Shown piece after piece: positions 4,774 to 28,739 of a stretch of 35,697 nt of DNA. Source of the DNA: Balneolales bacterium (GTDB lineage: Bacteria > Bacteroidota > Rhodothermia > Balneolales > HLUCCA01); NCBI GenBank assembly GCA_022565415.1, contig JAIUMT010000001.1, positions 1 through 35,697 on the forward strand. The letters run 5' to 3'. How positions within the stretch are numbered: the stretch's first letter is position 1; every line of letters begins with the position of its first letter. A program made the position numbers and the translations under genes. The notes beneath the pieces are model-generated. The model ran no database searches. It was not told the origin of the DNA and saw only the letters and a list, made by a program, of their open reading frames with translations.

Positions 4774-4827
4774 CTTTGTGGGAAAAGCTATTTCGGGAAA
4801 CCGAAGTGGCTTTTTTTATGCCGTTTA

Positions 4828-4842: not shown

Positions 4843-4901
4843 CGAAAGTGTTTCCCTAACCCTCCCTGGATGCTTCTATTCAATAGCTCAACTTCCCATC
4901 T

Positions 4902-4959: not shown

Positions 4960-4969
4960 AAATCACATT

Positions 4970-8365: not shown

Positions 8366-8369
8366 GGTC

Positions 8370-8965: not shown

Positions 8966-10037
8966 GGTTCTGGGTGGTTAAGTAGTTATAGATATTATTG
9001 ATTCGATTTACCGCATTCTCCCATGTGAAGTGGGGTAAAATAGACTGAGCACGCACTTTCATCGCATTTAGCTGCTGCTGGCTCATGGTCGCGAACTGGT
9101 TTAAAGCTTTCTGAATTGTTCCAGGCTCTTTTCCGCAGTAGAGTGCATAATCTTGTCGCAGGAAGTCTTGCATACCGTCTGCATAACTGGAGATCAGCAG
9201 ACAGTTAGATGCAAGAGCTTCCAGAGCGACAATTCCAAAAGGTTCATGGATAGAGGGTACTATCATGCCGTCACATTGTTGTAGTACGGATAACTTATCC
9301 TCACCCCACATTTGACCCATGTAGAAAGCGTTAGATTCCCGTTTCAAGTAGTTATTCAGAGCGCGTGAGATGGTAGGATCAGTGCCCAAACCACCGCCAA
9401 TGAAGTACATGTTTACATTGCTGGGTAACCGGGTTTCAAGTAGGTTGTGAAGTCCTTTCTGTGCCGTAAATCGACCGATAAATAGTAGCTTTCTATTGGT
9501 TGGGTTACCAGGTAGCTGAACATGTCGGCTTAATGTTCGCTGAAACTGATTTCGATCAATTCCATTATGCACGATTGAAACATTCGGCTTTTTATTGAAT
9601 CTATTCGCATAAGCAGCGCTCACGTGAATAATATGATCGGCGTGTCGTAAGCCAAATAGTTCAAGGCCGGCATGAGGTGTCACCGGAGACATAAACATGT
9701 CCGCTGCCGAAGCCAAATCTTCACAGAGTTTCGCCTCAGAGAGATGAATATGGCAGATTAATGGAATGCCAAGTACTGTTTTGAGCTGAACGCCAGTTTT
9801 AAACGTGTTTGCATCCATGGCGTGAATTACCTTACAGCTCTGCAGAAAACTCATGTTTATTGTACGAATGTCGTTGACATACGTGTAATTTGAGCCTCGA
9901 TGCGGTGCGTCTGTGGCCGGACCCTCAACAATGAAATGATATTCAGCCGGAAACCGCTTTAACGTTTCTTGCAAATACACGCCTAAGCCACCGAACGGTT
10001 TGCGTATGGAGTCCGGAGAAAGGATAATTACATTCAT
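8946..10037 (-). CDS. GT-B fold glycosyltransferase, family 4-like
   Basis: C-terminal EPFGIVALEALA (E-x7-E) motif, and LLFIGRFTAQKG typical of the Glycos_transf_1 domain. ATGA overlap with the upstream gene. Confidence 0.75.
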   Translation of the reverse strand: MNVIILSPDSIRKPFGGLGVYLQETLKRFPAEYHFIVEGPATDAPHRGSNYTYVNDIRTINMSFLQSCKVIHAMDANTFKTGVQLKTVLGIPLICHIHLSEAKLCEDLASAADMFMSPVTPHAGLELFGLRHADHIIHVSAAYANRFNKKPNVSIVHNGIDRNQFQRTLSRHVQLPGNPTNRKLLFIGRFTAQKGLHNLLETRLPSNVNMYFIGGGLGTDPTISRALNNYLKRESNAFYMGQMWGEDKLSVLQQCDGMIVPSIHEPFGIVALEALASNCLLISSYADGMQDFLRQDYALYCGKEPGTIQKALNQFATMSQQQLNAMKVRAQSILPHFTWENAVNRINNIYNYLTTQNHEQNVR

Positions 10038-10630
10038 CTGATTCGATTTAAAGTGAAAAACAGTAAACCGATTCCCACTAATGCAGCAGCACTGGTCATT
10101 GCCTGAAATCGTTCTGGATTTGTGATTGCCGTGAATCCACCGGCACCGGGTGAATGTACCTGGTCTGGCCAGAGAATCTCAGCGATGATTTGTGCTCTGG
10201 CCATAACATCCTTCCCGTAGTTGCCACCGGTTGTTATTTCGTCCGGATCTCGTCGAGCTGCTACTGCATTGGCCACGCGTCCTGGTCCGGCATTGTACGC
10301 TGCTGCTGCATGTTGCCAATTCTTTAATCGTTTGTAATCCGCGGACAAAAGCGAAGCACCATAATCGATAATGGCTGCGTGATCGTTTGGCCGTACTCGC
10401 TCGGTGAACTCGGAATGCCACCGACGATCTATTTGCATGAGGCCGACACCGTTTGTGAAGTCGCCCTGGTACATAACAAACAGCCTACTCGTTCCAATAT
10501 CGGTTTCCCGACTGGCCACGGCTAACAGTACGTCAATCGGCACGTTATGACGCGATGCAGCTTGCTCAAAAAAGGGAATCCATCCTTGAGCTGTGGCGTG
10601 TTGAAGTTGACTGTTTAATTGGGCAAGCAT
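10034..10630 (-). CDS. Lytic transglycosylase (SLT domain) with C-terminal membrane anchor
   Basis: SLT motifs are AVASRETD (catalytic Glu), GLMQID and AAAYNAGPG. The C-terminal hydrophobic tail is AAALVGIGLLFFTLNRIR. Confidence 0.85.
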   Translation of the reverse strand: MLAQLNSQLQHATAQGWIPFFEQAASRHNVPIDVLLAVASRETDIGTSRLFVMYQGDFTNGVGLMQIDRRWHSEFTERVRPNDHAAIIDYGASLLSADYKRLKNWQHAAAAYNAGPGRVANAVAARRDPDEITTGGNYGKDVMARAQIIAEILWPDQVHSPGAGGFTAITNPERFQAMTSAAALVGIGLLFFTLNRIR

Positions 10631-10926
10631 TAGATGAATTGCAATAGAATGATGAGTATAATCACGTTTGTAATCGTCGGAATGATTTTATCTTCCCACT
10701 CATACCTAGAGTCCCTCATTTCCCACTGGGCTTTTTCTCTACCCCAATAGAATCCGGCACCAAATGCACATCCAAAGAAGAGTGCATTCTCGATGGATGC
10801 AAAGATCAATGCCACGAGCGTTCCGGCAATCATTAGTGCGAAAGCCACAAAGGAGTGCAGAAACAAGTAGCCTACACCTAAGTGGTTTCTCATCCACCAC
10901 CCAATTTTTTTATCTAGGTTTTTCAT
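10630..10926 (-). CDS. Polytopic small membrane protein (98 aa)
   Basis: Three hydrophobic segments. Start and stop are coupled to the neighbouring genes. Confidence 0.55.
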   Translation of the reverse strand: MKNLDKKIGWWMRNHLGVGYLFLHSFVAFALMIAGTLVALIFASIENALFFGCAFGAGFYWGREKAQWEMRDSRYEWEDKIIPTITNVIILIILLQFI

Positions 10927-12203: not shown

Positions 12204-12216
12204 AAAGAGACCTCGT

Positions 12217-12723
12217 TTAAGTCGTTAAATAATTGCCCTCAGAATCAATCAAATAATTGCCCTGAGAGTCGGTTAAAAAGGATTGTCCTTCCGGTAGTTC
12301 CGGCAAGGAGAAATCATAACGTATATCCACAAAAATGGAACTGGTTGGCTCAGCCGATCCCGTTGGTTGAAATGAGCTGGTGGCCATAATTACCAGGTTA
12401 TCGTGCATTGCAAATCGCACCAAACCGCGTACTTCCAGGGTAATCCCTGATTTGCCTGGTAACTCAATGATGTATTCAGGTTTGTCGGTAGCGTAATCCG
12501 GGTTAAACTCATTGTATAACCGCAGATATACGACTTCATCATTAGGGTTGAACGCCTTTAGGCCATAAACATCAGTTCGCCCTATGCTTACGGGTAATTT
12601 GGTATTGTTCACATCCCACGACCGATACCTTGAAAGTCCGTCAGCATTCGCTTTCCGATACGCTGCCTCGATGTTTACCAGGGAAGCGCGAATATGTGAA
12701 AGGGGCTTAATTATTGATTCCAT
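12217..12723 (-). CDS. Hypothetical structural protein (168 aa), beta-rich, C-terminal tandem DS(Q/E)GNYL(I/T) repeat
   Basis: Sits in the late operon. The C-terminus is LTDSQGNYLIDSEGNYLTT. Confidence 0.5.
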   Translation of the reverse strand: MESIIKPLSHIRASLVNIEAAYRKANADGLSRYRSWDVNNTKLPVSIGRTDVYGLKAFNPNDEVVYLRLYNEFNPDYATDKPEYIIELPGKSGITLEVRGLVRFAMHDNLVIMATSSFQPTGSAEPTSSIFVDIRYDFSLPELPEGQSFLTDSQGNYLIDSEGNYLTT

Positions 12724-12731
12724 ACTTCTCC

Positions 12732-13805
12732 TTAAAATGTGGTTCCATCAACCCAGATTGTCGTACTGTCCACACGGGTACCTAGCATTTGGCGAAACTC
12801 CTCTTTCGACCAGTATTTTGAGATATCACTGTTCGTAAAGTCACAGCCTTGTAGGTTGCAGAACTCTTCGAAAATGGGCTGCTGCATGAAAAATGTGTTC
12901 CGGAAGTCGTTATACTGGCAGAAGTAGTTAAAGCGCGTTTCGCCCTGAAACTGGCAGTAGCTGAAATTATTGGCAATGATGTAGCCACTGATCTGATTTC
13001 TGTCGTAGAAAATCGAGTTCTGGAAATCGCACTCAACAATTTTACCGATCAATCCGGTGCGTATTTGCCACGATGAGGAGTCAAATCTGGACTTGCGTAA
13101 AATCGGAGTTACCGCATCTTCTCCCTGGTCATAATGCCGGAAGTTCCCTCCGGATAAATCACTTTCAATGATGGTGCTAGAGACAAACTTAATTTTCGTC
13201 ATCACTGGTGATTGAAACTTGCATTTACGGATCACCACGTTTCGCCATTCCACCACCGCGCCATTACTGCCATTGTCATTCCAGTAACTCTGATCAAAGA
13301 TGCAGCTCTCAAGCGTACATGCGGTTAACTTCGCCTGGTACATGTGCGGAAACTTGAAATGAGAATCCTCAAACAAGCATCCAAGAAAGTTCACATACGG
13401 TGCAAATAGATACAGGCTAGTGATCTTGTAGAATGAACTCCCACGACACGTAGAAATGTCGAATCGATCAGGGTTGTTAGCCTGAAACGACGATCCGTTC
13501 TTGAGCAGCGATAAAGGGAAGTAGTTCAGCGGTGTATCGCCAATGATCGCGCGTAGATCAATATCATCGAAGATCATTCCTCGATAGGCTTCAATGCTGG
13601 TGGCCGGTTTACGACCGGGTTCCAGCACAGTCTCCCATCTTCCGGGATAGCCAACTATTCCGTTAAAGAACTCTGCAAAGGATGTTTCTTCCCGGCCAAG
13701 TTGAGCTTGCAGGTAAATACGCTGATTAAATCGGTTCCACTGTGCGATCAGCTGACGAACTTTGTCGGGTGCTATTCGGAGGGTATCGTTTACTATGGCA
13801 CTCAT
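12732..13805 (-). CDS. Pentapeptide-repeat-like protein (357 aa)
   Basis: The C-terminal two-thirds has a 5-residue periodicity with central F/L/I, e.g. CDFQN SIFYD ... NNFSY CQFQG ETRFN YFCQY NDFRN TFFMQ ... CDFTN SDISK. Confidence 0.5.
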   Translation of the reverse strand: MSAIVNDTLRIAPDKVRQLIAQWNRFNQRIYLQAQLGREETSFAEFFNGIVGYPGRWETVLEPGRKPATSIEAYRGMIFDDIDLRAIIGDTPLNYFPLSLLKNGSSFQANNPDRFDISTCRGSSFYKITSLYLFAPYVNFLGCLFEDSHFKFPHMYQAKLTACTLESCIFDQSYWNDNGSNGAVVEWRNVVIRKCKFQSPVMTKIKFVSSTIIESDLSGGNFRHYDQGEDAVTPILRKSRFDSSSWQIRTGLIGKIVECDFQNSIFYDRNQISGYIIANNFSYCQFQGETRFNYFCQYNDFRNTFFMQQPIFEEFCNLQGCDFTNSDISKYWSKEEFRQMLGTRVDSTTIWVDGTTF

Positions 13806-14140
13806 GCGCTTCGGTGCTCCCTGGTTAATTCGGTGACAAATACACGACCAGAAGACGGGTTCGCCAAACTATAGGTTAACGGACCTTTAAACAGCTGATC
13901 TGCTGGCACGTCGAGTAGATTAACCACTGTTCGCGCTGGTAGCGAGAAATTGCGGTAATCTGGTGATGGCGTGCGAGTTCCGAAAGCAACAAACATGGCC
14001 GTATCGGTATCATTTTCGATGATTAAACCTACACGGTTGCCGTTTGGCTCTAACAGGCGTCCGGAATTTTCTTTGTAATCAATACGCCTTAACGCTGTCC
14101 GGATTTCGCGCGAAGGTGTATTTGCTACTGGATGGTTCAT
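13802..14140 (-). CDS. Small beta-rich structural protein (112 aa); penton-size jelly-roll candidate
   Basis: ATGA-coupled to both neighbours. Alternating hydrophobic beta-strand pattern (RVGLIIENDTDTAMFVAFG ... RVFVTEL). The fold assignment is inference only. Confidence 0.4.
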   Translation of the reverse strand: MNHPVANTPSREIRTALRRIDYKENSGRLLEPNGNRVGLIIENDTDTAMFVAFGTRTPSPDYRNFSLPARTVVNLLDVPADQLFKGPLTYSLANPSSGRVFVTELTREHRSA

Positions 14141-14892
14141 TCGTAGTACCCTTCTCCAATTACAGAAACTTGATGTGTGGTTACATTGCTGTTATTGGTC
14201 ACATACATGCTAATCGGGATGTTTCCGCCTATGTAGAATGGAATAAGCGCTGGCATGGCCATAAACTCATCGTTGAGCTGTTTCACGAACAGATCGCGCT
14301 TGATTTCATCGTTGTACACCTCAAGACTCACTTGCAGGTCATCATCACCAGTGGATCCAACGAAAAAGCGGTGAACGAGTATCGGTCGTGCCCGTGAAGT
14401 GAGGTTTACTAGCTTGAGTTGCTGCTGCGCTGGCACGTCTGCAAAACCATAGACGAATACCGGTTCGAGTATTTTGCGACCTACCTTTTGATTGAACTCA
14501 CGCCATTCCTCGAGTGTGACATGGTCATATCCGAGCAGTTGCACGTTTGCTTTCGCGGGATTGCTCCCGTCCAGATTGGTAAGCGTGATGGTTAGGAAAT
14601 TTCCACGTGCAATGATGAATGGGGCTAGCAACGATCTGAACCGGAATAGATCTTGCAAGGCAGAGATTTGTACGTTCGTAAAAATGTCACGCTCATTATT
14701 GAGCTTTGCACTGGCGAGAATGGTACCAGGGGTGTTCGTCCCAAAGGAAAGCCGGTTAAAGGCAAAATCCTGGCCATCATAGCCACGGAAATCACGGGAT
14801 ACGCTTTCTCCGGGTGGTATATCAAAAATCAGTGAAGGGGAGAATGGTGAGATTCGTTTGGAAGGACGGAATCGTTTAATCGCATTTGACAT
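14137..14892 (-). CDS. Beta-rich structural protein (251 aa); capsid-protein candidate
   Basis: Strand-like segments throughout (FLTITLTNLDG, NVQLLGYDHV, LQVSLEVYN, ISMYVTNNSNVTTHQVSVIGEGYYE). Adjacent to the 197-aa candidate. Confidence 0.4.
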   Translation of the reverse strand: MSNAIKRFRPSKRISPFSPSLIFDIPPGESVSRDFRGYDGQDFAFNRLSFGTNTPGTILASAKLNNERDIFTNVQISALQDLFRFRSLLAPFIIARGNFLTITLTNLDGSNPAKANVQLLGYDHVTLEEWREFNQKVGRKILEPVFVYGFADVPAQQQLKLVNLTSRARPILVHRFFVGSTGDDDLQVSLEVYNDEIKRDLFVKQLNDEFMAMPALIPFYIGGNIPISMYVTNNSNVTTHQVSVIGEGYYE

Positions 14893-14979: not shown

Positions 14980-15573
14980 TTACTCGGCTATGAAAAGCTG
15001 TGTAACCAAGTTGAGGCGACCATAACCGGCAGTATCCCAATGGGCTGCTGTCGGGAATACCGATGCATCAGCGAACTGGATAGTGACGTTAAACACCTGT
15101 CCGGCACCTACCTGAAATGGATCAGCAAAACGGATTACACCGTTGCTTCGCATCTCAATGGCTTCGTGCAGAACCTGTGCGTTCGATGCGCCTTCCGATG
15201 CAGTTGCATGGTAGGAAGTCGTCTTGAAGTTGAAGAAATCTCCCAGACGGCCCAGCAACATCTGCTTGTTGTCTTGATCCAGCTGGATTTTGACAGAAGC
15301 GTGCTTCAAGGCATTAATGATCTTCACCGGATCAATGTTGTCCGCGGTGCGGATAACCTGAAGAGTGGTGTCGATCGACATTCCCAAAATCGCAACATCC
15401 TTGTTACCAGGAAGCGGGTTGGTAACGTAGTTGTTGTCGGTGTCAACGCGGGATGCGTTGGCCGGGAAGAAATTTGGCCGTGAGTCATTCTGAACAACAG
15501 GTTTAGTGTCGTAAATGATGCGTAAGCGTTTGTCACGCGGCACGTTGAGTTTTTTGACTATTGGAGCGTTCAT
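14980..15573 (-). CDS. Beta-rich structural protein (197 aa); major-capsid-protein candidate
   Basis: AAGGAA Shine-Dalgarno. A strong downstream hairpin is a common mark of the most highly expressed late gene. Strand-rich sequence (FNVTIQFADASVF, RLNLVTQLFIAE). Confidence 0.4.
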   Translation of the reverse strand: MNAPIVKKLNVPRDKRLRIIYDTKPVVQNDSRPNFFPANASRVDTDNNYVTNPLPGNKDVAILGMSIDTTLQVIRTADNIDPVKIINALKHASVKIQLDQDNKQMLLGRLGDFFNFKTTSYHATASEGASNAQVLHEAIEMRSNGVIRFADPFQVGAGQVFNVTIQFADASVFPTAAHWDTAGYGRLNLVTQLFIAE

Positions 15574-15650: not shown

Positions 15651-16238
15651 TCAGTAGATAAATCCGTCGTCAGAATGTTCGTTTTCGTCCAGATACCCAC
15701 TGTCATCAATAAACTGTGAGTCGGCCAGCGGTTCTGGCGTCCAGTTATTGGCGGGGTTTAACGTTTCTGCCGGTGCAAGCCGAACTGTATTTGCAGTAGG
15801 CAAGTACCCAGCCGGTGAATTCATGGCGTCAGCAAGCTGGCCACTCATGGGTAAGAATGACAGGTTTGGCATTACTGTGCGTACACCAGCGCTCACGCCA
15901 GCTGCACCCGCGCCAATACCGATATACTTCACCAGGTTGGATTTGCCCATGCCGGTGAGTGCTACACCCGCTGCCAGGGGAATACCCACAGCTGCAATTT
16001 TTTGAATGCTAGATGGAATAAATCCACTTGCAAGTCGGGTGATTTGTGTTGCTGCTACCATCCCGCCTAGGATTCCGGCTGCTGGTATAAGAAGGTCTTT
16101 CGTACGCTTCGTGACAGACGGATTACGGCGGGTGGTTCGACGTTTCGTTGTTCGTTTCATTGTTTTTTTCTGTTTTGGTTCGTGCGGATTGGTAAGAATG
16201 GCCAATTCCGCAACCGGATTTTTTGCGTAAGCGATCAT
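15651..16238 (-). CDS. Membrane protein with Arg/Lys-rich N-terminus, glycine-zipper TM region and acidic C-terminus (195 aa)
   Basis: KKTMKRTTKRRTTRRNPSVTKRTKD, then AAGILGGMVAA / GIGAGAAGVSAG, then ...DDSGYLDENEHSDDGFIY. AGGTGA Shine-Dalgarno. Confidence 0.6.
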   Translation of the reverse strand: MIAYAKNPVAELAILTNPHEPKQKKTMKRTTKRRTTRRNPSVTKRTKDLLIPAAGILGGMVAATQITRLASGFIPSSIQKIAAVGIPLAAGVALTGMGKSNLVKYIGIGAGAAGVSAGVRTVMPNLSFLPMSGQLADAMNSPAGYLPTANTVRLAPAETLNPANNWTPEPLADSQFIDDSGYLDENEHSDDGFIY

Positions 16239-16301: not shown

Positions 16302-19300
16302 TTAGTTGAGTATGCCACGGCCATCTATCATTAGGTTGTCGATTACCAGGACATCATCGAGTTGATAGACTGGTCGTTTGTGTGCGTCGAAATCGTGCAC
16401 GTAGTAATTCACTTTGTTTTTCTGGTCTCCGGGTTGCATGATTTTATCTGAGGAGTACCAAATTTTGTGCGCATACCCGATGTTTTTCATCTGCGTGTCG
16501 GGTAGATCAACCTGATAATCATTCCCGTCGGCAGGGTAGTGCTTGAATTCTTCGTGCATTCGTTGTGCAGCAGGAGCGTGTACTGTTTTTTGTGCAGGAC
16601 GCACGCGGTTAGCTGGAACAATAAAGAGTTTGGATCCTTTTGCGTCGCTGAACATGTAATCACGGCCACTAAAGGCAGCGTTATCCGTGTGGAATTTGAC
16701 TGCTCTGCCCAGGTATGCCAGTTGCAGATTACCACCGGGATTTTTGCGAACACCCGATTTAAGCATTCCGGAAGAAACCCCCAGTTTGAAAGTTTGCTCT
16801 GCCCAACTCTTGCGGGACATGAATACAGAGCGGGTTTCAGCCATGAACCGATCGTCAAAGTACTGGCCAATTGCCGGGTCTGTAGCGGTTACTCGATCAG
16901 CTTTATCCAGTAAGGCTAAAACGGCCATAGCTGCCTCCGCTACTTCAAACTTTGTCTGCTCTTCGCGGGATTCAAAAGTTTTTACGCGCTGGCCATACAT
17001 TTCATATTTGTCAATGCGCGTTTTCCGGTTGACCGGATAGCTATTGAAGAAGCGTTCGACGAAATCAAAGAGTTTCTTTTCCAAAGCTTTGTAGTCGGTA
17101 TCGCTGCCATAATAAACCCGATCAAACAGGCGTCCAACGGCATACATCATCTGGCCGTCGCGTTGGTGGGAAATCGCAAGATTCCCCAGGGAAATACCGC
17201 TGTACCTGTAATCAAGATTAATCCCGCTTTCGTAGCCACCATCTTTCTTAGTAACATAGCCACTAGTCCACCCTCTAGGCGACAGATCATTCACCAGGCT
17301 TTTGAGCGTGCGTTGTCCATCGGCAGATACCGGTGGAAGCGACTCAATATTAGCGTATGCGTAGGTTGCTTGGCCACGGCTGTACTCGTCACGTTCTTGT
17401 TTTAATGCGACGATATTGGCCTTAAACGATTGATAATCGTCCGATAAATTGTTGTACATGGATACCGCGCGTTTAAGATCCCGCGATATCTCCAGGGCTT
17501 TTTGCTTCTCAGCATCATCAAGCAGCGCCATCATAATAGTCTCGTAATCCCATCCGCCACTTTCGGTGTCCTCAGACTCCATTTCAGTATCTTTGCCATA
17601 CCACAGCTCACGGATCCAGTTGGATTTTTTGTTGAGCAATGTGTAACGGTAGGCATCCAGTGACTTGCGAAGCAGATAGTAATGAATACGAACTTCTGCG
17701 TTTACGTTGCCTTGACGAACTCCACGGCCATTGCGCTGTGTGAGTTCGCTTGGTTTCCACGGCACGTCTAAGTGATGGATGTCGGTGCAGAACTTGTTTA
17801 GATCCATACCTTCACCCATAGAGGAAGTGTTCCCAATAATGACGCGAATTTCTCCGGCATTGAAGCGCTGCTGAATCTTGATCTTTTGCTCTGGTTTGGA
17901 GTTTTCTCCACCATTAATAATTGCTATCTCGTTTTTGGGAATACCCATTTCCACAAGAGTGTCACGAAGCAACCGGTGGTAGTTACGTCCTTTGGTGGTC
18001 GTAATAGGGTCGCAGAATATGAGCTGGCCATTTTTTGCGCCATCGGTAATACTACCGTCCTTGCCCTCAACATCGCGGGATTTCTTCCAGTAGTTGTCAA
18101 CCAGCGTTTTACACATCACACCGGCCTTGCTGTCCGGCTCGATTTTTCCCGTGTCCAGCACGATATCAGCGCTATCCCCCGGAGTGGGAATGTTTTCAAG
18201 TACATAAAATGCCGGGTCCACAGCAGCGCGTGATCCGGATCCAGCAACAAACAGATAGTTGTCTCGTGAATCTTCGCCCGTTCGCTTGTTTGGGATCATT
18301 AACGGCTTATCCGACTTAATCGCATCGACACGATCATTCAGATTCGTGATAATAGCCTGGTCACGTAATCCGGGTTCTAAATACTCCGGATTGTACTTCG
18401 CTACCGGGAGAATCCGGCGCACTTCCGGGAAATCAGAAGTATCAATAAACTCAACGTAACGGTTGAAAATACCGCGTAGAGTGTCCAGATTCTTATATCC
18501 GGTTACGACTAGTTTATCCTTGAAGTTCCCCAGCATATCGGCAGTTTGAACGCTTTCCACACGTGCATACTGATTGATAAAGCTATCCACATCATCAAGT
18601 TTGAGTTGCTCGATGTAATGCGGTGCAATCGCGGAAAGAAGAATGTAAGCCTCAAGTGGCGTGTTATTCGTTGGTGTAGCGGTAAGCAAAAACACATTAC
18701 GATTGCCCATTGCCTGATTGATGTAGTGGAATTTGGCAAAGGCTTCTTCAGCTCTATCTGAGCTCGTACCAACACCAATACCTAACTCCACGGCCATACC
18801 GGACAGGAACAGATTCTTGAAATTATGAGCTTCATCAACGATTAGTGCATCGACGCCTAGTTCATCAAAGTAGATAGAGTTCAACTTTGTAGATTCGAGA
18901 GCAACAGATACTTTCTGCTCCATGTTCATCAGTGAGACGAACATTTTTTTGAGAATCTTTTGTAATGGGTTTTTGAGCGTTACTTTCTTTCCGGATGCGG
19001 ATGCTTGCACTGCTGCTAACTCGGAATCGGTAATCTGAGCGCTAATCTTGTCTATTTCTGAGCGTATCTTCTGCAGGCGTAGGTTTTGATATTCTTCAAC
19101 CAACTCAGGTGAATTCGGGATAGCCTTAAAGCCTTCATGCGTTACGAAAATGGCGTCATAGTCATTTTGCTGAGCCATCGACAACATGAGTTCTTTGTTC
19201 TTCCTGTCGGTTTTCAGGTTCAGAACGTTCGCACCAGGGAAAGCATGTTGATATTCGTCAATCCATTTCTCGACTACCTTGCTGGGCACAACAAACATGG

Positions 19301-22300
19301 GCTTATTGGCCATACCACGTTCTTTCATCAGGCCAGCCAGCAGAATAGCGGACAATGTTTTTCCGGCACCAACACCATGCGCATTGACAGCAGCGCCAAC
19401 AAGTAGCGCCTTTTCAATCCACTTCTTTTGATGATCGCGCGGTGCGAATGGCTGACCATTTGTCCATACACTTCCCATATTTGCACACGAGAACGTCTCA
19501 CCAGTATAATTCGGCTCAATGGTCACGTTGTACGTATCGTTCCAGGCGTCAACAGCTTGCTGTCGAATTTCATCATCGGCTATTTCAACAATCCACTCGG
19601 TGAACCGCTTTGGAATAAGCCGTCTCATTTTGTTGTTGTTGAGAACCTGGTCTTCCTGTGCTTTCTGCTTTAACTGGTCGTCTGCTTCGGCTGGAACACG
19701 TTGTTTTGGGTAATCGGTGCCATTTAGGTAATATTCGATAATGGATGCATAATCACCTTTCCAACCCCATCCAGACATTTGTGCCAGACTCGTATTGTAC
19801 CGCGGGATTGCCCAGGCGCGACGTGTACCTCCCAACTCACCACCGGTGGCATACTTCACGTACGCTTTGGCCACTTCAACAGGCATATACGTATTCACAT
19901 CAGCTAAATCGAAGTTGATTTGCGAGGCGGTTTTGCGTGTCGGCATCATTTCGGTAATGGCCGTGATGTTTTTAGCAATCCCTGCTTGTTTGGCTAGATC
20001 CAGTTTCTCTTTGAGATTTCCAGAAATGTATTCCGGACGAATCAGGTAGGTGCCTGAAGACGGGTCAAGGAATGCCGACGGGTCACGCTCGGCCATTTCC
20101 TTGATTTTACCCGCGGAGAAGCCCGTAATTTTGGTAAGCACGTCAATGTCGCTACGCAGTCCGGTTTGACGGCAATACAGAATGATTTCAGAAAGTTTGT
20201 CTGTGCGTAGTTTTGGCGCAAATTCTGCGTTAAAAATGGTGTCACGCTCGACGATATCGCTGAATGTTATGGATCCTTTGCCACCAGGTCGTGCGACCGT
20301 ACGAAGCTGATTATAGTCCGGAGATTGGCCGAAATACTGTTCAATGATCTTAGATTTGTCAAACCACCCGTATTGCTTTATATGCTCGTTAATCGCCTTT
20401 TTCAGATCAGTACGGATCTCTGCTTTTTGTGATGTGCTGGCCAACTCTTTTTGCGCGGATATGAGCTGTTTTAGAATAAATAGGATAGCATTGGCGGAGG
20501 CAGCTTCGTCTGGGAGTTGTACTTTGTCTGAACTTTTGAGCTGGTCGGGCTGTGGGACTGCTGCCGGAACGCGTTCAAGCGCTTTAAACGGGAAGGTGTT
20601 GAGCACCGATTCGAGTTTATCTTCATCCATTGCACCACGAACAGCGATTTGGCTACCAAACTGACCAGCGCCAATTTCGAGTGTTCCCAGAATGCAGTCC
20701 GGGTTCTTTTTGTACCATGCATTCATGTACACACCAGAGCTTTCTACCTGCTCAGATGTGATGAATATGCGATCTTGATCGGATAGATCACGCTGGGTAT
20801 CGCGCTTTTGGAAAAACATGACATCGGTAGTAACCGTTGTGCTTGCATTGGCTTCAAAAGTCGAAGACGGCAACCGGTAGGCACCTAAGAAATGAGCCAT
20901 TCTGGCCATTGCTTCCCGCGCGGACGCATTTTTTTTATCCATGGTGCCGGTCGAAGAAATCACGGCAATCAATCCACCAGGACGCACCGTTTCCAGCATC
21001 TTCAATATGAAATGATCGTGAATCTTTGGCTTTAAATCGGCAAAGGTATCGTTACGGGAATAGCGGGAGTAATTGCCGAAAGGAGGGTTTCCGATAGCTG
21101 CATTGATGTACTGCTGATGTGCAGCGAAGTCGAAGCTCTTAATGTCAGCCTGTCGGACGTCGTCAGAAGGGTAGAGTGAGCTGGCTATTTGAACGGCTAA
21201 TGTATCGTAATCAAAAGCAAGAATATTCGTGTTATCGGGCTTGGTGCCGATAAAACTACCAACTCCGCATCCGGGTTCCAGTACCCATCCACCGTCAAAG
21301 CCTAAACGTATAAGCGCTGCCCACATGAATCGGGCAAGAGAATACCGGGTGTAATGTTGGTTTAAAACACCAACATCGACGGAAAGGAGTCCGCCTTGAC
21401 CGGTGTATAGCGACAGCGTTTTTAGCTCGTCTTTGGTGTAGGAACTATGTTTTTCTTTGAGAAGTGCAGCAGCTGCACGGTTCAACTCGATACGCTCTTT
21501 TCGAGAGAGCTGAATATCTGGAGTTGTCCTTAGCGAGTAGTTTTCTTTTTGGACGGCTGGCGTAGCAAATGATCGTGCATCATGTCGCTGGCCAGATCCG
21601 CTGGGTCGATCTCGAAGCGGGGCATGTTCGGATACGGATTTTCCTCCGGATTTTGGCGCGGTTCTTTTTTGGCTGCTTCCACTGCCTTGTTCGCGGTCTT
21701 GTGAAACTGATCGTAAAGTGGTTTGAGGTCTTCTTTTGCCATATATCTCCTGAAAATTGAGGTTGATTTCTTGACCTAAGTTAGAAAATTCTAGCTCAAT
21801 CGCATCTTTAAATTCATCTTTGATTTTTCCCGCTGCTATTGCTTTTGCATAGAGCGCTACCAGCGCGTCAAAACGTTGTTCACGTTGAGCTTGAAGGGAA
21901 GGGGCTGCTGCCTGGTTGTTACGATAGCTAGACTGTTCAACTTCACGATCGATCATAACTTGTTCGGAATAAAATGCGATAATTTCACTTCCTTCGATAT
22001 TGTTAGAATCCTGGGCAATTATGCCATCATAGCCTAGCTCTCGAAGTGCTGCGTTTATCACCTGAAAATCATTTTGTAAGACTTCGTTATAATCAAGGTC
22101 AATTTGACTTTCATCATCGTTTAGATATCCCTGACGTCGAAGTTGTCTGTCGATTTCCTTCTTAATTGCTATACGCCACGCTTTTGTGGCCCGAATTTTA
22201 CCTTCAATATTATGCAAGTCTTTCTCATAGACAGGCTTCTTAATTGAGGCATATACTTGTAGTACCTTATCCCCAAATTCTGAGGCATTTTCAGGGTTAT

Positions 22301-22472
22301 CGGTCAAATATATACCAGTACCCCAACCTGGTGCATCACCAACTACGAATTTGTCGAATCTTCTGTTTGTACCGTGATATAGCTTCAGCGGGTTGCCGTT
22401 TTTATCGACTACCTTGCTGCCCTTAAACCACTGTGAAAAGCGGGTTGCACTATGTGTTTTTACTCCAGTCAT
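16302..22472 (-). CDS. Polyvalent giant protein (2056 aa): N-terminal ART-like domain + N6-adenine DNA methyltransferase + SNF2/DEAD-like helicase + about 430-aa unknown C-terminal region
   Basis: N-terminus is FSQWFKGSKVVDKNGNPLKLYHGT...GIYLT...ASEFG. MTase motif I is EPGCGVGSFIG and motif IV is GNPPFGN. Helicase Walker A is GVGAGKT, DEAH box is IVDEAHNFKN, motif III is LLTATP and motif VI is QRNGRGVRQGN. Confidence 0.9.
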   Translation of the reverse strand: MTGVKTHSATRFSQWFKGSKVVDKNGNPLKLYHGTNRRFDKFVVGDAPGWGTGIYLTDNPENASEFGDKVLQVYASIKKPVYEKDLHNIEGKIRATKAWRIAIKKEIDRQLRRQGYLNDDESQIDLDYNEVLQNDFQVINAALRELGYDGIIAQDSNNIEGSEIIAFYSEQVMIDREVEQSSYRNNQAAAPSLQAQREQRFDALVALYAKAIAAGKIKDEFKDAIELEFSNLGQEINLNFQEIYGKRRPQTTLRSVSQDREQGSGSSQKRTAPKSGGKSVSEHAPLRDRPSGSGQRHDARSFATPAVQKENYSLRTTPDIQLSRKERIELNRAAAALLKEKHSSYTKDELKTLSLYTGQGGLLSVDVGVLNQHYTRYSLARFMWAALIRLGFDGGWVLEPGCGVGSFIGTKPDNTNILAFDYDTLAVQIASSLYPSDDVRQADIKSFDFAAHQQYINAAIGNPPFGNYSRYSRNDTFADLKPKIHDHFILKMLETVRPGGLIAVISSTGTMDKKNASAREAMARMAHFLGAYRLPSSTFEANASTTVTTDVMFFQKRDTQRDLSDQDRIFITSEQVESSGVYMNAWYKKNPDCILGTLEIGAGQFGSQIAVRGAMDEDKLESVLNTFPFKALERVPAAVPQPDQLKSSDKVQLPDEAASANAILFILKQLISAQKELASTSQKAEIRTDLKKAINEHIKQYGWFDKSKIIEQYFGQSPDYNQLRTVARPGGKGSITFSDIVERDTIFNAEFAPKLRTDKLSEIILYCRQTGLRSDIDVLTKITGFSAGKIKEMAERDPSAFLDPSSGTYLIRPEYISGNLKEKLDLAKQAGIAKNITAITEMMPTRKTASQINFDLADVNTYMPVEVAKAYVKYATGGELGGTRRAWAIPRYNTSLAQMSGWGWKGDYASIIEYYLNGTDYPKQRVPAEADDQLKQKAQEDQVLNNNKMRRLIPKRFTEWIVEIADDEIRQQAVDAWNDTYNVTIEPNYTGETFSCANMGSVWTNGQPFAPRDHQKKWIEKALLVGAAVNAHGVGAGKTLSAILLAGLMKERGMANKPMFVVPSKVVEKWIDEYQHAFPGANVLNLKTDRKNKELMLSMAQQNDYDAIFVTHEGFKAIPNSPELVEEYQNLRLQKIRSEIDKISAQITDSELAAVQASASGKKVTLKNPLQKILKKMFVSLMNMEQKVSVALESTKLNSIYFDELGVDALIVDEAHNFKNLFLSGMAVELGIGVGTSSDRAEEAFAKFHYINQAMGNRNVFLLTATPTNNTPLEAYILLSAIAPHYIEQLKLDDVDSFINQYARVESVQTADMLGNFKDKLVVTGYKNLDTLRGIFNRYVEFIDTSDFPEVRRILPVAKYNPEYLEPGLRDQAIITNLNDRVDAIKSDKPLMIPNKRTGEDSRDNYLFVAGSGSRAAVDPAFYVLENIPTPGDSADIVLDTGKIEPDSKAGVMCKTLVDNYWKKSRDVEGKDGSITDGAKNGQLIFCDPITTTKGRNYHRLLRDTLVEMGIPKNEIAIINGGENSKPEQKIKIQQRFNAGEIRVIIGNTSSMGEGMDLNKFCTDIHHLDVPWKPSELTQRNGRGVRQGNVNAEVRIHYYLLRKSLDAYRYTLLNKKSNWIRELWYGKDTEMESEDTESGGWDYETIMMALLDDAEKQKALEISRDLKRAVSMYNNLSDDYQSFKANIVALKQERDEYSRGQATYAYANIESLPPVSADGQRTLKSLVNDLSPRGWTSGYVTKKDGGYESGINLDYRYSGISLGNLAISHQRDGQMMYAVGRLFDRVYYGSDTDYKALEKKLFDFVERFFNSYPVNRKTRIDKYEMYGQRVKTFESREEQTKFEVAEAAMAVLALLDKADRVTATDPAIGQYFDDRFMAETRSVFMSRKSWAEQTFKLGVSSGMLKSGVRKNPGGNLQLAYLGRAVKFHTDNAAFSGRDYMFSDAKGSKLFIVPANRVRPAQKTVHAPAAQRMHEEFKHYPADGNDYQVDLPDTQMKNIGYAHKIWYSSDKIMQPGDQKNKVNYYVHDFDAHKRPVYQLDDVLVIDNLMIDGRGILN

Positions 22473-22473
22473 G

Positions 22474-23850
22474 TTAAGCGATTGCTTGAGATAAAAGGGT
22501 TTCCAACCTGTCCATGCGGGAATCGAATGTTTCTTTTTGCTTCGATTTTGGGCGTATTTTGCGCGGTTTTACGGTTCGCTTTGGTGCAGCATCTTTTAGC
22601 GTGTTGAACCGATCGTTGGCTTTGTCGCCATTGATATGCTCAAAGATAGGTTTGCCGTCCTGTCTGATTTGGTAGTTTCCACCGGTGTAAATAAGGTCGA
22701 TTTCACTTCCGGATTTCGTTTTGCTCGATCGCAACACGCTGCCATCTTTAATCTCTGCTTTTCGTGCATCTTCGACTTTAACAGTTGGTCTTGACTGTGT
22801 AGCTGGTTTGGTTTTCGTCGCTGGGGTGCTGGCCTTAACCGTTTTAGGTTTAGATACAGTCTTATCCCCTTTTTTGGCGTATTCCTTTTCTTGGCGACGA
22901 TATTCTTGAGCACCCAACACTTTGCGTGCATGTGCTTGATTTATGATTTCAATAACGGTAGAACCTGTTTCGGTGGACATCTTTTTCCAGGCCGACACAA
23001 AGGTGTCCGCGCAATGGGTATGAATTACCTTACCAGATTGAAGCATTTCCAAATACGATTTCTTGTTTTGACGCTTGTATCGGAAGGAAACCGGATTGCG
23101 ATCGACCGTACAGCTGTGCGCAAAGTCCACCATGTCGTTGAGGCGTTTAATCCCGCGGATTTTATGTCGCTTGGCTATGTCTGATAGTGGGATTTTGAAC
23201 GGTACGGGTACCGGGTTTTGGCGGGGTGATGCTTGTTTCTTTCGATCGCTGGTCTTGGATTTGCGTTGATCGAAATTTATTGGCATCTCCTGAGCATCGT
23301 GTGGTAGTCGATTTTTCTCTACATAGACAACACCATCGGCAACGCGTAACTCCACATCAACCATGTGTGCCAGCATGGATGAACCTTTAAACTTCCCGTC
23401 TTTGGTGGCATGGTTAACGACAATGAAGAAAATATCCTCTTGCTTACACCACTCATACAAATCAATTTGTTCTTTTTCGCGCAGATGCGCCATGTGCGCA
23501 GAATCTAACACCAGCACTTTAGCCTTGTGTTTAATCACGTCCTGCTTGAGGTGGTGTAATCCCAGATAGTCGCCAACAAGAAGATCTTTCACCCCGGCAC
23601 GCATCCGTTCGATTTTATCTTTCATGGTAGCGCCAGCACCTTCTTCACTCGAGCAGTACAGCACGGTTCCACGACGCTCCGATAGTCCTTTGGCCAACAT
23701 GATTGAAACCGTCGATTTTCCAGAGAATTTTACACCCCATATAAATACAGACGTATTGCTTTGGGCACGACCAATAATCTTCTCGAAGCCTGGAATATAG
23801 AATCCCGGGAAGTTTGTTTTTACCAGATCGGATGCGCGAACGACACTCAT
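22474..23850 (-). CDS. RecA/RadA(Sms)-like P-loop ATPase with long lysine-rich C-terminal region (458 aa)
   Basis: Walker A is WGVKFSGKST and Walker B is KVLVLDS. NHATKDGKFKGSSMLAHMVDVEL...EKNR parallels RadA (HVTKEG.IAGP..LEHMVD...KNRFG). The C-terminal half is rich in K/P/T (KPKTVKASTPATKTKPATQ, KRTVKPRKIRPKSKQKE). Confidence 0.6.
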   Translation of the reverse strand: MSVVRASDLVKTNFPGFYIPGFEKIIGRAQSNTSVFIWGVKFSGKSTVSIMLAKGLSERRGTVLYCSSEEGAGATMKDKIERMRAGVKDLLVGDYLGLHHLKQDVIKHKAKVLVLDSAHMAHLREKEQIDLYEWCKQEDIFFIVVNHATKDGKFKGSSMLAHMVDVELRVADGVVYVEKNRLPHDAQEMPINFDQRKSKTSDRKKQASPRQNPVPVPFKIPLSDIAKRHKIRGIKRLNDMVDFAHSCTVDRNPVSFRYKRQNKKSYLEMLQSGKVIHTHCADTFVSAWKKMSTETGSTVIEIINQAHARKVLGAQEYRRQEKEYAKKGDKTVSKPKTVKASTPATKTKPATQSRPTVKVEDARKAEIKDGSVLRSSKTKSGSEIDLIYTGGNYQIRQDGKPIFEHINGDKANDRFNTLKDAAPKRTVKPRKIRPKSKQKETFDSRMDRLETLLSQAIA

Positions 23851-24862: not shown

Positions 24863-25245
24863 CGTCGTTTCCGTTTGCGTGAGATTAAAGCTACTGCTGC
24901 GCCAACCACCACCGCTCCCCCTACAAAGAGCCAGGTTTTATTGTGTGTGTGCCCTGTGGTGGCAGTGGTGGTTGTGGTCGTAACAGCTACATCGTTGTTT
25001 GTACCGGAATCTACTCGTGTTGGTGGTAGTGGGTTTACCGGAGTCAACACGTTGTCTCTGATACTATCTATGATGGTGCCAATTCGAGAGCTGTGCCCGG
25101 TATTAGAACCAGTATCAGTACCTTGATCTGGTATCAACCCATCATTTCTAGAACCGTTATCTGGTTGAAATGGATCTATGTAGTAGTCTAGTTCGCGCTG
25201 GTGACGAGATTGGCCTACATCGTTTAAATATCCTGATCCACGCAT
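24859..25245 (-). CDS. C-terminally anchored protein (128 aa) with N-terminal GSGYLND motif
   Basis: MRGSGYLNDVGQ..., a T-rich linker (VAVTTTTTTATTG), then the anchor WLFVGGAVVVGAAVALISRKRKRR followed by the stop. Confidence 0.6.
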   Translation of the reverse strand: MRGSGYLNDVGQSRHQRELDYYIDPFQPDNGSRNDGLIPDQGTDTGSNTGHSSRIGTIIDSIRDNVLTPVNPLPPTRVDSGTNNDVAVTTTTTTATTGHTHNKTWLFVGGAVVVGAAVALISRKRKRR

Positions 25246-25247: not shown

Positions 25248-25520
25248 TTACTTCTTGTTGTAGAGTTTATATGCGCCATAACCCAAAGCTACCAGTGCTA
25301 AAATGGTTAGGAGTCTGGGACTTACAACCGTTGCTGTAACCGGAGTCACAGGCACAAATCGTCCGTCAACGAGATTTTCATTACCCGTTAGCGTGTTCGG
25401 TGGGTAGGATACAGGTGGGTTTACGTGAACCGGATAGCCTGGTCCTGGTACGGGATAGCCTAGATCACCCAAAAACCCAATGTCTGATATATATCCGCTT
25501 TTTCCTGTTGTTCTCGTCAT
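25248..25520 (-). CDS. C-terminally anchored protein (90 aa) with N-terminal GKSGYISD motif and GYP-rich segment
   Basis: Start moved to the ATG at 25520 (AAGAGG Shine-Dalgarno 6-7 nt upstream). This removes the overlap with the upstream gene and aligns MTRTTGKSGYISDIGFLGDLGYP with MNRTSGKSGYLSDVSNLNFLGYP of 8573-8965. The anchor is LTILALVALGYGAYKLYNKK. Confidence 0.6.
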   Translation of the reverse strand: MTRTTGKSGYISDIGFLGDLGYPVPGPGYPVHVNPPVSYPPNTLTGNENLVDGRFVPVTPVTATVVSPRLLTILALVALGYGAYKLYNKK

Positions 25521-25524: not shown

Positions 25525-25851
25525 TTACCTCTTTTTCGTTTTAGCAAATTTGTACACACCGTAACCGGCTGCTGCAATCACGACGCCAGTCAGTGCAATC
25601 GTTGCAAATGATCGAGCTGGACGCGCTGTAACTTGGACTTCCGGCAATGTTCGTTGAACAGGCGTGTTTGGGTTAAAACTGATAGGCATTATGCCTGCGT
25701 TTGTAAATGGTGGTGTCCATGTCTGGTTACCACCTTGATTTACCGGCATGGTTGATACCAGGTTATCGATCACTGGATTTACGATGAGGTCACGCCACCA
25801 TTTGCTGTCATCAAGAAAACCGGATTGGCACGAATTACACTGCGTATTCAT
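25525..25851 (-). CDS. C-terminally anchored protein (108 aa) with N-terminal SGFLDD motif
   Basis: The ATG at 25851 is preferred over the GTG at 25884, which would overlap the upstream gene by 26 nt. MNTQCNSCQSGFLDDSKWW... The anchor is IALTGVVIAAAGYGVYKFAKTKKR. Confidence 0.55.
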   Translation of the reverse strand: MNTQCNSCQSGFLDDSKWWRDLIVNPVIDNLVSTMPVNQGGNQTWTPPFTNAGIMPISFNPNTPVQRTLPEVQVTARPARSFATIALTGVVIAAAGYGVYKFAKTKKR

Positions 25852-25858: not shown

Positions 25859-27037
25859 TTATTTAAGTAAGAGGTAGGTTCCACCGGCAGCAGCTATTAC
25901 ACCGATACCGACGAGAAGTGGATTGATGCCAGCTCCAGTACTTAACATCGTCGACATATTTTCCGGTATTATTGCTGCTGCTGTGCTTTGTGGCTTATTT
26001 AGCTCCTCAGCGCGAGCAAATACCGCTTGCATGATTTCGGGCTTCGATTTTACATGAATTTCCCAATCGCCATTCCAGGGTAATTTCTCATTGAGTGCCT
26101 GAATGAGATAGGGATTAGCTTGTGCATACTGCAACATGGCATGTGCAGCTTCATGATTGTTGTAGTGAATGTAAACTTGTGGGCTCATTCCCATTTGTCG
26201 CAATCCACTTACAGCTGCATCGCGACTTGCGCGACGTTCTGCACGTCCTGCTGCACGGTTGGTGAAGATGCCGGTGAATCCACCAATTACAGCGCCAACC
26301 GCTGTACCTACACCCGGGAATAGTGCTGTGCCAATCGCAGCTCCCGTTGCTGATCCTGCTGCTACGTGATTCGTAGCATCATCTAAATAACCGGATTTAC
26401 CGGTCGGTGTTTGAGTTTCGTAATGATCTGACATGGTTTCTGCGTTACTGTGCACATCGGAAAGCATAACTTCCCAACGTTTGGTTATCTGTTCTGCAGG
26501 AATGCCAACTCCTGCTGATTTTGCTAGCGTAACGTCGAATGGGTACCAGCGGCCATTATGTTCAAATTCAAGATATATGTGTGAAAACTGTGTGGGATTG
26601 TTGTTTTTTTGACCAATCACCACCACACGAGAGGGAATACCCAGGCTCATCAACAATGATCCGGCCAGTATGGTCATATCATCGCAATCACCTGATTTCA
26701 GTTTAAGCGTTACTTCTGCGCCTTGCAGCCATTCGATATGATGTGGATCTCGAACGTATGCAATGGTGTGTTTCATCCAGTTATACACCGCGCTGGCCAC
26801 GTGGCCAAAATTTCGTCGATCAGGATGTCCGGTTCGCTTATCAACCGGAATCCCTTGTGTTATTTCCAGTGCTTTTTGTCGCACCTGAAAATTGCCTCTA
26901 CCATCGAGAATTAATTCGCGAATTTTATCAACTACACCAGCGAGTCCGGGGTAGCTTCCGCGAGATTTACGAACTTCTGAGGCCGTACGCTCCTCGTCTG
27001 TTCGGTTCCTCGTAAGTGTGAGGCTTGGGAGAGTCAT
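25859..27037 (-). CDS. Transglutaminase-like (papain-fold) cysteine protease-domain protein with glycine-zipper region and C-terminal anchor (392 aa)
   Basis: SGDCDDMTILAGSLLMSLGIPSRVVVIG...FSHIYLEFEHNGRWYPFDVT matches the Cys/His/Asp core G.C..fa....l.r.lGIP.R.v.G...H.w.e......W...D.t. An internal GKSGYLDD motif is followed by GSATGAAIGTALFPGVGTAVGAVIGGFTG and the terminal LLVGIGVIAAAGGTYLLLK. Confidence 0.75.
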   Translation of the reverse strand: MTLPSLTLTRNRTDEERTASEVRKSRGSYPGLAGVVDKIRELILDGRGNFQVRQKALEITQGIPVDKRTGHPDRRNFGHVASAVYNWMKHTIAYVRDPHHIEWLQGAEVTLKLKSGDCDDMTILAGSLLMSLGIPSRVVVIGQKNNNPTQFSHIYLEFEHNGRWYPFDVTLAKSAGVGIPAEQITKRWEVMLSDVHSNAETMSDHYETQTPTGKSGYLDDATNHVAAGSATGAAIGTALFPGVGTAVGAVIGGFTGIFTNRAAGRAERRASRDAAVSGLRQMGMSPQVYIHYNNHEAAHAMLQYAQANPYLIQALNEKLPWNGDWEIHVKSKPEIMQAVFARAEELNKPQSTAAAIIPENMSTMLSTGAGINPLLVGIGVIAAAGGTYLLLK

Positions 27038-28649: not shown

Positions 28650-28739
28650 ACGGGGATCGCTATCACCTCTAGAAAATGAAATGGCAACTGTGCACGTTTG
28701 CCACGTTCACGATCCCCTTCTTTCGGGTGGTTTTAATAG

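Follow-up and report, generated by a model that had tools for sequence, protein, structure and literature searches.

Introduction

Polyvalent anti-defence proteins are known from tailed phages and conjugative elements, in which delivery proceeds by way of a portal and tail or through a type IV secretion system (T4SS). For one protein of this kind, DarB of phage P1, both packaging and the protection of DNA in cis have been described (PMC5512222). The survey of polyvalent proteins by Iyer, Burroughs, Anand, de Souza and Aravind (2017; PMC5512222) covers phages that use a portal and terminase together with elements that use a T4SS, and its text is without mention of Salisaeta or of tailless or membrane-containing viruses. 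A virus of the latter type is SSIP-1, which infects Salisaeta; its icosahedral particle lacks a tail and has a membrane inside, the capsid is T=49 and the genome is a circle of 44 kb (PMC6260650, PMC6356626). Its sequence was described as showing hardly any similarity to entries in GenBank (PMC6260650, PMC6356626), and the literature treats it as an orphan, the single isolate of its lineage. Here we analyze a 35,697-nt stretch of DNA binned as Balneolales bacterium (assembly GCA_022565415.1, contig JAIUMT010000001.1, positions 1 to 35,697; hereafter the window) and, within it, a giant gene at 16302..22472 on the minus strand that brings these two lines of work together.

Homology identifies the window as a smaller, temperate relative of Salisaeta phage SSIP-1, predicted to be tailless with an internal membrane. 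The enzymatic content of the giant protein is, by domain assignment, of a known kind, namely a DarB-like dyad of N6-adenine methyltransferase (MTase) and SNF2-type helicase, joined to an ADP-ribosyltransferase (ART) domain of the ART-PolyVal family. What is new is the tailless type of virus that encodes it, a conserved C-terminal module that takes the place of MuF, portal or ArdC-N domains, and the recurrent fusion of such proteins to a RecA/RadA-like virion ATPase. We think it probable that the giant protein is a DarB-like cargo of an SSIP-1-like temperate phage, carried in the virion by means of its C-terminal module and serving to counter restriction or modify the host.

Results

Domain architecture of the giant protein

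The gene begins with an ATG codon and encodes 2056 aa with a mass of 231 kDa and no transmembrane (TM) segment predicted from hydropathy; the product is identical to an NCBI protein of a 'Balneolales bacterium' metagenome-assembled genome (MAG). At 6171 nt it occupies 17.3% of the 35,570-bp genome (6171/35570), in agreement with an earlier estimate of 17 percent. That estimate belonged to a sequence-only reading, made without database searches, in which the protein was proposed to combine ART-like, N6-adenine MTase and SNF2 parts, and in which a failure of domain searches at the ART-like N-terminus was named as grounds for refutation. All three enzymatic parts score over the Pfam gathering cut-offs (ART-PolyVal, N6_Mtase/Eco57I, SNF2-rel_dom/ResIII and Helicase_C), the N-terminal one with an E-value of 1.4e-18 (PF18760, residues 23-172, 68.4 bits against a cut-off of 31.2), and PHROGs agrees, with matches to 'DNA methyltransferase' (3e-183) and 'DarB-like antirestriction' (2.6e-168). 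Each motif quoted in the sequence-only reading is found exactly once and inside the range given for it. We regard the domain assignments as near certain.

The ART-PolyVal domain was delimited with Pfam and orthologue alignments (21957..22406, minus strand). The motif FSQWFKGS...YHGT (residues 12-35, 22368-22439) runs into its N-terminal part and is followed by GIYLT (residues 53-57) and SEFG (residues 64-67); H33 in YHGT and Y55 in GIYLT are conserved, and a helical insert of ~60 residues lies between the two halves of the domain. PF18760 is Tox-ART-HYD2-like, and the catalytic configuration of ART-PolyVal is H-Y-D (PMC5512222). The acidic candidate in the giant protein, by alignment only, is E170, which is D in the orthologue P0003. 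A sequence search of the domain against the PDB was uninformative. The domain is followed by a helical segment and then a basic low-complexity linker rich in S, R, P, Q and G, recognized from sequence and composition (residues 173-340, pI 9.9; 21453..21956, minus strand).

The N6-adenine DNA MTase occupies residues 370-624 (20601..21365, minus strand) and was identified by Pfam (N6_Mtase/Eco57I), by homology to P1 DarB and by its motifs, with EPGCGVGSFIG at residues 399-409 (21246-21278) and GNPPFGN at residues 461-467 (21072-21092). The succession of motif I (EPGCGVGSF) and motif IV (NPPF) is that of the gamma class. The SNF2-type helicase follows in two lobes, both supported by Pfam and by DarB homology. 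Its N-lobe, which contains a helical insert (residues 952-1351; 18420..19619, minus strand; SNF2-rel_dom/ResIII), has intact Walker A (GVGAGKT, residues 1033-1039, 19356-19376), Walker B (DEAH, within DEAHNFKN at residues 1213-1220) and motif III (TATP, within LLTATP at residues 1262-1267). The C-lobe with a conserved extension (residues 1490-1675; 17448..18005, minus strand; Helicase_C) has an intact motif VI, QRNGRGVRQGN (residues 1579-1589, 17706-17738).

A kinship with P1 DarB, a capsid-packaged MTase-helicase that guards incoming DNA against type I restriction and that the sequence-only reading had brought up as background, is borne out by BLASTP, with three collinear blocks at E-values of 1e-24 to 1e-28 covering the MTase (residues 370-624 against DarB 88-344, 29% identity), the helicase N-lobe (952-1351 against 783-1199, 24%) and the helicase C-lobe (1532-1669 against 1462-1595, 37%). 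With tblastn, the core from residue ~300 to ~1700 matches DarB-like proteins of many tailed phages at 25-28% identity, with E-values down to 2e-115. The dyad is DarB-like in that an MTase with motif I and NPPF is followed toward the C-terminus by a superfamily 2 (SF2), SNF2-like helicase whose ATPase motifs are intact. The protein is polyvalent in that it joins at least two unrelated effector or enzymatic domains, and its gene lies in a viral genome with homologues of SSIP-1 structural proteins on both sides. It shares with P1 DarB the collinear order of N6-adenine MTase and SF2/SNF2-type helicase, a length of more than 2000 aa and a gene position beside head and packaging genes. It differs in belonging to a tailless membrane phage rather than a myovirus, in its extra N-terminal ART-PolyVal domain, in a C-terminal portion of ~380 residues without kinship to the last ~660 of DarB, and in that neither Dar nor Hdf packaging partners were found here.

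This C-terminal portion had been left unassigned in the sequence-only reading at about 430 residues. That it is unassigned stands, with no Pfam match past residue ~1590 of the giant protein; its length does not, as distant DarB-like homologues align to residue ~1675 and only ~380 residues are truly unassigned. The whole of this tail is kept in close relatives (41-64% identity; Balneolales and Rhodothermales MAGs and metagenomes). An AF2 model of residues 1676-2056 (md20c70cdcb1f, mean pLDDT 80) divides it into a subfamily-specific region (residues 1676-1911; 16740..17447, minus strand), comprising a small beta-sheet domain, a helix of ~70 residues and a helical bundle, and a terminal, beta-rich module (residues 1912-2056; 16305..16739, minus strand) that ends in ...IDGRGILN-COOH and was delimited by BLASTP and profile comparison. 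The subfamily-specific region is mostly kept in the closer relatives and is entered by only some of the further profile matches. A Foldseek search of the 381-residue model against the PDB and BFVD gave nothing under an E-value of 0.02, and because the model is a multi-domain one (pTM 0.49) it may hide matches at the level of single domains. A kinship of the module to the designed PQQ-like beta-propeller Scone-E (9e-7, three repeated blades) was considered and judged to be hairpin and repeat similarity.

At the nucleotide level, the GC content of the giant gene equals that of the structural module around it, a scan for promoters and terminators found nothing enriched over shuffled sequences, and a megablast query with the gene matched nothing in the phage, plasmid or E. 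coli collections.

A C-terminal module shared with SSIP-1 gp43

The slot occupied by the giant gene is filled in SSIP-1 by gp43, a protein of 2319 aa annotated as 'DNA methyltransferase; structural protein'. The two proteins are detectably related (phmmer 1e-10), and their only clear similarity lies at the C-terminus, where residues 1912-2056 of the giant protein align with residues 2159-2319 of gp43 (BLASTP, 30% identity, E 2e-11) and both chains end in ...ID-x-RGILN; the MTase regions match weakly (E 2e-4). The two have in common a slot between the gp40 ATPase and gp44-gp48, an adenine-MTase-like domain and the C-terminal module ending in RGILN. By contrast, gp43 consists of an MTase and a ParB_N domain without SNF2 or ART, and outside the module it is essentially unrelated to the giant protein. 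The giant protein can be described as a gp43-like candidate cargo, with a module of ~155 aa (residues 1912-2056) at the extreme C-terminus, ending in (E/G)RGILN, and a gene lying between that of a gp40-type ATPase and those of gp44-gp48.

Searching 1.84 billion cluster representatives with a profile built from the C-terminal region recovered 221 clusters at E<=1e-3, of which 92 reached E<=1e-10. Outside the close relatives most of the matches comprise the last ~155 positions only, in proteins ranging from 45 to 4086 aa. The module lies no more than five residues from the C-terminus in 131 of 156 proteins, and in all but two of the remainder the match to the hidden Markov model stops ~25 residues before the end. 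Profile comparison thus marks the formerly unassigned C-terminus as the one part that is conserved across the lineage. The domains that precede it are diverse and make up the classical polyvalent set: among 29 large representatives, we found ddrB-ParB in 10, MPTase-PolyVal in 8, ArdC-N in 8 and SNF2/Helicase_C in 7-9, along with various MTases, LPD1, LPD3, LPD29, Zeta toxin, RelA_SpoT, ExoX-like domains and LAGLIDADG inteins.

All seven of the genomic contexts that we sampled for module proteins are SSIP-1-like structural modules, with gp33, gp34, gp36 and gp40 homologues upstream and gp44-gp48 and gp54 homologues downstream, and it is in such contexts alone that the module has so far been seen. 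The census is that sample of seven, and the scans of public collections were pattern-limited. In IMG/VR, neither the ATPase nor the C-terminal region as a single-protein query, nor patterns derived from the module, gave a match, and a full-length alignment query recovered only relatives at 28-29% identity. A word-indexed protein search with the module profile found one fragment only, and a metagenome scan found at least one locus.

In at least four representatives (P0129, P0139, P0142 and P0145), ATPase, cargo and module are parts of one polypeptide, in which a gp40-type ATPase domain makes up the first ~200 residues, as in the order ATPase, ArdC-N, MPTase, (ddrB-ParB), module. Two loci, L088 and L090, have no separate ATPase gene. 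The module appears to tie many different anti-defence enzymes to SSIP-1-like particles.

Compared with the polyvalent proteins surveyed previously (PMC5512222), the giant protein draws on the same repertoire, with ART-PolyVal and the MTase-SNF2 dyad in one polypeptide, and shares with them a gene position among late or packaging genes and rampant domain shuffling between relatives. The constant partner differs, being MuF, a portal domain or an N-terminal ArdC-N domain in the surveyed proteins and here an unannotated C-terminal module, sometimes together with an N-terminal RecA-like ATPase. The logic of a constant part for virion incorporation joined to variable delivered effectors is that of MuF-domain effector fusions and of the encapsidation region of the N4 virion RNA polymerase (PMC5512222), from which the present module differs in its C-terminal position, its length of ~155 aa and the lack of any sequence or detectable fold kinship.

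Domain shuffling and the QGYLNDD motif

The ART domain is N-terminal in the giant protein and in L001, lies between the helicase lobes in P0002, P0004, P0005 and P0006, and is absent from P0007-P0009; these alignments indicate that it moves within the close family. In the four proteins with an internal copy, an ART-PolyVal insert of ~220 residues follows the position of window residue ~1436, and a segment resembling the C-terminal strand precedes the YHGT/GWGLYFT segment, an order that suggests a permuted or duplicated domain.

L001 (JGI 3300075147, a 40-kb contig) carries the closest orthologue of the same architecture. In it a single frameshift at ~14380-14420, corresponding to window residue ~1400, splits the gene into open reading frames (ORFs) of 1515 aa and 833 aa, the second of which has an extra ART-like insert; an error of assembly, decay of the gene and programmed frameshifting are all possible causes. 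Two further module proteins, of 3952 aa (L089, 10001-21859) and 4086 aa (L091, 5631-17891), have LAGLIDADG (intein-like) domains in their SNF2 regions, and in both loci a separate gene upstream of the module protein encodes ART-PolyVal (2140 aa, in L089) or RelA_SpoT (in L091).

The motif QGYLNDD (residues 114-120; 22113..22133, minus strand) was proposed in the sequence-only reading as a site, following the first ~110 residues, at which the protein might be processed. It is a copy of a pattern, (S)G[YF][LI][NSD][DE], that occurs seven times in the six-frame translation, each time in a genuine minus-strand gene (8927-8941, 15684-15698, 22116-22130, 25219-25233, 25482-25496, 25807-25821 and 26378-26392), against a chance expectation that we roughly estimate at ~0.2 per proteome. 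Of its seven carriers, five are small or membrane proteins and the other two are the gp34-like protein and the giant protein. Most copies sit close to the start of a small protein that is anchored by a C-terminal TM segment, or directly precede a Gly-zipper. L001 keeps four of the copies at the orthologous places. These counts mark the motif family as real in the window genome, where it might serve as a docking peptide or be cut by a protease. Processing of the giant protein at this point finds no support, as the copy falls in the helical insert of the ART domain and not after the domain, it is not kept in P0003 (62% identical, with the same N-terminal ART), which reads WGVLKDD at the site, and neither SSIP-1 nor any of seven other relatives (L088-L094) has the motif.

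The structural module around the giant gene

The sequence-only reading had placed the gene in a structural operon, and its flanks do consist of homologues of SSIP-1 proteins, with gp34, gp36 and gp40 homologues upstream and gp44, gp45/46, gp47, gp48 and gp54 homologues downstream; apart from gp36 and gp54, each of these SSIP-1 products carries a structural annotation. In the GenBank record of SSIP-1 the note 'structural protein' is attached to gp34, gp40, gp41, gp43-gp48 and others, and the structural status of SSIP-1 products is used here in the sense of that annotation only.

Immediately upstream, with a single nucleotide between its stop and the ATG of the giant gene, lies a gene for a RecA/RadA/KaiC-like ATPase of 458 aa (22474..23850, minus strand). 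It matches AAA_25, its best SSIP-1 match is gp40 (phmmer 2.5e-23) and its best PDB match is RadA (3.7e-6); Pfam gave no FtsK/HerA-type match for it. SSIP-1 gp40 is treated as a predicted packaging ATPase (PMC4124505). Farther upstream are a 117-aa homologue of gp36 (phmmer 3.3e-7) and a gp34 homologue of 392 aa, a transglutaminase-like membrane protein with a Gly-zipper (25859..27037, minus strand; Pfam Transglut_core 2.1e-12, phmmer 2.1e-17).

Downstream, 63 nt separate the end of the giant gene from a gp44-like gene for a membrane protein of 195 aa with a basic N-terminus and a Gly-zipper (15651..16238, minus strand; phmmer 2.4e-5, TM prediction). It is followed by genes for a capsid-associated protein of 197 aa that is homologous to gp45/gp46 (14980..15573, minus strand; phmmer 5e-21 and 1.6e-10; 82% identical in L001), for a candidate major capsid protein of 251 aa that is the best conserved of the small neighbours and homologous to gp47 (14137..14892, minus strand; tblastn 5e-7, phmmer 1.6e-15, AF2) and for a gp48-like protein of 112 aa that is structural in SSIP-1 (13802..14140, minus strand; phmmer 2.6e-5). 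The AF2 model of the gp47-like protein, built from a five-sequence alignment with one of five models confident, consists of two consecutive beta-barrels (pLDDT 71.5, pTM 0.73), and the best Foldseek matches in the PDB include the double-jelly-roll (DJR) capsid proteins of STIV, PRD1, PM2 and PBCV-1 (E 3.6e-4 to 5e-3, TM-score ~0.45). Reviews place SSIP-1 with phages whose two major capsid proteins are vertical single beta-barrels; the model suggests that the SSIP-1 lineage may instead have a DJR-type capsid protein (gp47; L087 36043-36813).

The distal part of the operon (7862-13805, minus strand) encodes a pentapeptide-repeat beta-helix protein (357 aa), a GT4 glycosyltransferase, a lytic transglycosylase and an M15-like peptidase, together with a repeat-rich protein of 426 aa whose sequence looks, by eye, like a beta-helix spike. 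The transglycosylase, a gp54-like SLT protein, has a C-terminal TM anchor (10034..10630, minus strand; Pfam SLT 3.3e-10, phmmer 1.4e-21). These are probably genes for host recognition and for entry and exit through the cell wall.

The viral genome

The first 127 nt of the window recur exactly as a direct repeat at its end (1-127 = 35571-35697), an overlap that we attribute to the assembler (k=127) and that implies a complete circular genome of 35,570 bp; a complete circular viral genome has in this case been binned into a Balneolales MAG. Nine of the window proteins have collinear matches in SSIP-1 by phmmer. Minus-strand genes form a run of ~21 kb, and the genome further encodes a type II restriction-modification (R-M) pair, a tRNA-Met and a tyrosine integrase. 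A plasmid or conjugative element was considered, as Pfam and PHROGs searches of the neighbouring proteins gave no terminase, portal or HK97 capsid match; it was ruled out by the SSIP-1 homology and the DJR-like capsid model.

The R-M pair, which is complete (a 489-aa MTase and a 312-aa restriction endonuclease), and the integrase occupy 696-3093 and 4712-6142 on the plus strand, in a segment with a GC content of 0.34-0.41 as against ~0.46 in the structural module. The phage thus bears both an R-M system of its own and a DarB-like antirestriction protein. A 32-nt repeat (TCTACTGGGGTAACTATTGGGGTAACTCAGAT) is present three times (4611-4642, 4899-4930 and 4931-4962) where it flanks or overlaps the start of the annotated integrase ORF; the copies may be putative arm-type or attP-associated binding sites, and the true start of the integrase may lie downstream of the annotated one. 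The tRNA-Met gene (anticodon CAT; 28739-28811, minus strand) is just upstream of the structural operon, and a strong terminator-like hairpin is found on the same strand at 29496-29469.

Discussion

Packaging, delivery and anti-restriction activity of the giant protein are what we infer from these comparisons. That it might travel in the virion had been suggested before on the strength of gene position between the ATPase and capsid-candidate genes; the suggestion keeps its status as an inference and now has comparative support in the annotation of gp43, the shared module and the ATPase fusions of relatives. Two independent lines lead us to favor packaging: the positional homologue gp43 is annotated as a structural protein, and relatives show a Rosetta-stone fusion with an ATPase that bears a structural annotation of its own in SSIP-1, where it is taken to be the predicted packaging ATPase (PMC4124505). 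The invariant free end of the module, in turn, suggests that it docks into a partner.

If this interpretation is correct, the giant protein would be made late, together with the structural proteins, and its C-terminal module with the invariant free ...RGILN end would find a docking partner in the gp40-type ATPase or vertex complex, or else inside the membrane vesicle, such that the protein is incorporated into particles. It would then enter the cell along with the circular genome. There the SNF2 motor may move along the entering double-stranded DNA (dsDNA), with the MTase methylating adenines or blocking sites in cis; type I/III-like restriction of this DNA would thereby be averted, in the way proposed for P1 DarB (PMC5512222). 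The ART domain may ADP-ribosylate a host target, either protein or nucleic acid, to favor establishment. Over evolutionary time, the cargo domains would be shuffled fast by arms-race selection with the module held constant.

Several points weigh against this scheme. Particle presence is on record only for SSIP-1 gp43, and there through GenBank annotation alone. The module is without a recognizable fold relative, so that a docking role is purely contextual, and the third catalytic residue of the ART domain is placed only by alignment. The presence of a type II R-M system in the same phage means that part of the logic of the MTase could differ. Finally, delivery of a protein as large as 231 kDa counts as a difficulty for a membrane phage that lacks a tail.

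The alternative that survives best, although we consider it unlikely, is that the giant protein is an intracellular enzyme that stays out of the particle, in which case it would be made late to methylate or remodel progeny genomes ahead of their packaging, or to modify DNA and proteins of the infected host, and its operon position would reflect late timing only. Many phages encode orphan MTases that are not packaged, and the giant gene shares a transcription unit with late genes in which no internal terminator signal rises above background. Against it stand the annotation of the positional counterpart gp43 as a virion structural protein and the repertoire found ahead of the module, as ArdC-N, MPTase-PolyVal, ddrB-ParB and LPD domains are typical of proteins that are co-delivered with DNA (PMC5512222). 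A freely diffusing enzyme is also ill-served by the fusions to a virion ATPase seen in relatives, and the attachment of a constant C-terminal module to unrelated enzymes points to a shared function in localization.

Slightly less plausible still is that the main role of the protein is mechanical, within the machinery that packages or ejects the genome, with the module and ATPase forming a vertex complex, the SNF2 part moving or condensing the genome and the MTase and ART domains as accessories. The gene is always beside, and sometimes fused to, that of the predicted packaging ATPase, SNF2 proteins are dsDNA translocases and the module is strictly conserved across the lineage, all of which fit such a role. 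The region between ATPase and module is fully interchangeable, however, with MTase and ParB in SSIP-1 and, in others, ArdC-N, MPTase and ParB, Zeta toxin and SNF2, or LPD domains alone. With cargo this interchangeable, the SNF2 domain cannot be the essential motor of the lineage, and only the module could be essential.

A function in defence, in which a DISARM/BREX- or type ISP-like MTase-helicase pair protects the lysogen or excludes superinfecting phages, we reject as very improbable, since the PADLOC matches to DrmD and BrxH helicases (best 1.2e-21) span only the generic helicase C-lobe (residues ~1490-1655), there is no nuclease or phospholipase D (PLD) domain and no Drm or Brx partner gene, every neighbour is a virion gene homologue, and over its full length the protein is matched best by families of DarB-like antirestriction proteins.

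Beyond the conclusion that the giant protein is probably carried in the virion, a broader and more tentative idea, to which we give somewhat less than even weight, is that the ~155-residue module is a portable tag for virion incorporation and delivery that is specific to SSIP-1-like phages and that acts with the gp40-type ATPase as a modular delivery system for interchangeable anti-defence cargo. Such a system would be without precedent beyond tailed phages and conjugative elements, and its functional analogy to the MuF-effector fusions would have arisen independently.

The repertoire of anti-defence proteins known from elements with a portal and tail or a T4SS is thus found here in tailless phages with an internal membrane, and the known relatives of SSIP-1 are multiplied by loci from Balneolales and Rhodothermales MAGs and several metagenomes. 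If the module is indeed a packaging tag, it would provide a handle for finding the delivered effectors of SSIP-1-like viruses in metagenomes and may serve as a tool for loading foreign proteins into SSIP-1-like particles. It would also pose the question of how a phage built around a membrane vesicle co-delivers a protein of more than 200 kDa with its circular genome.

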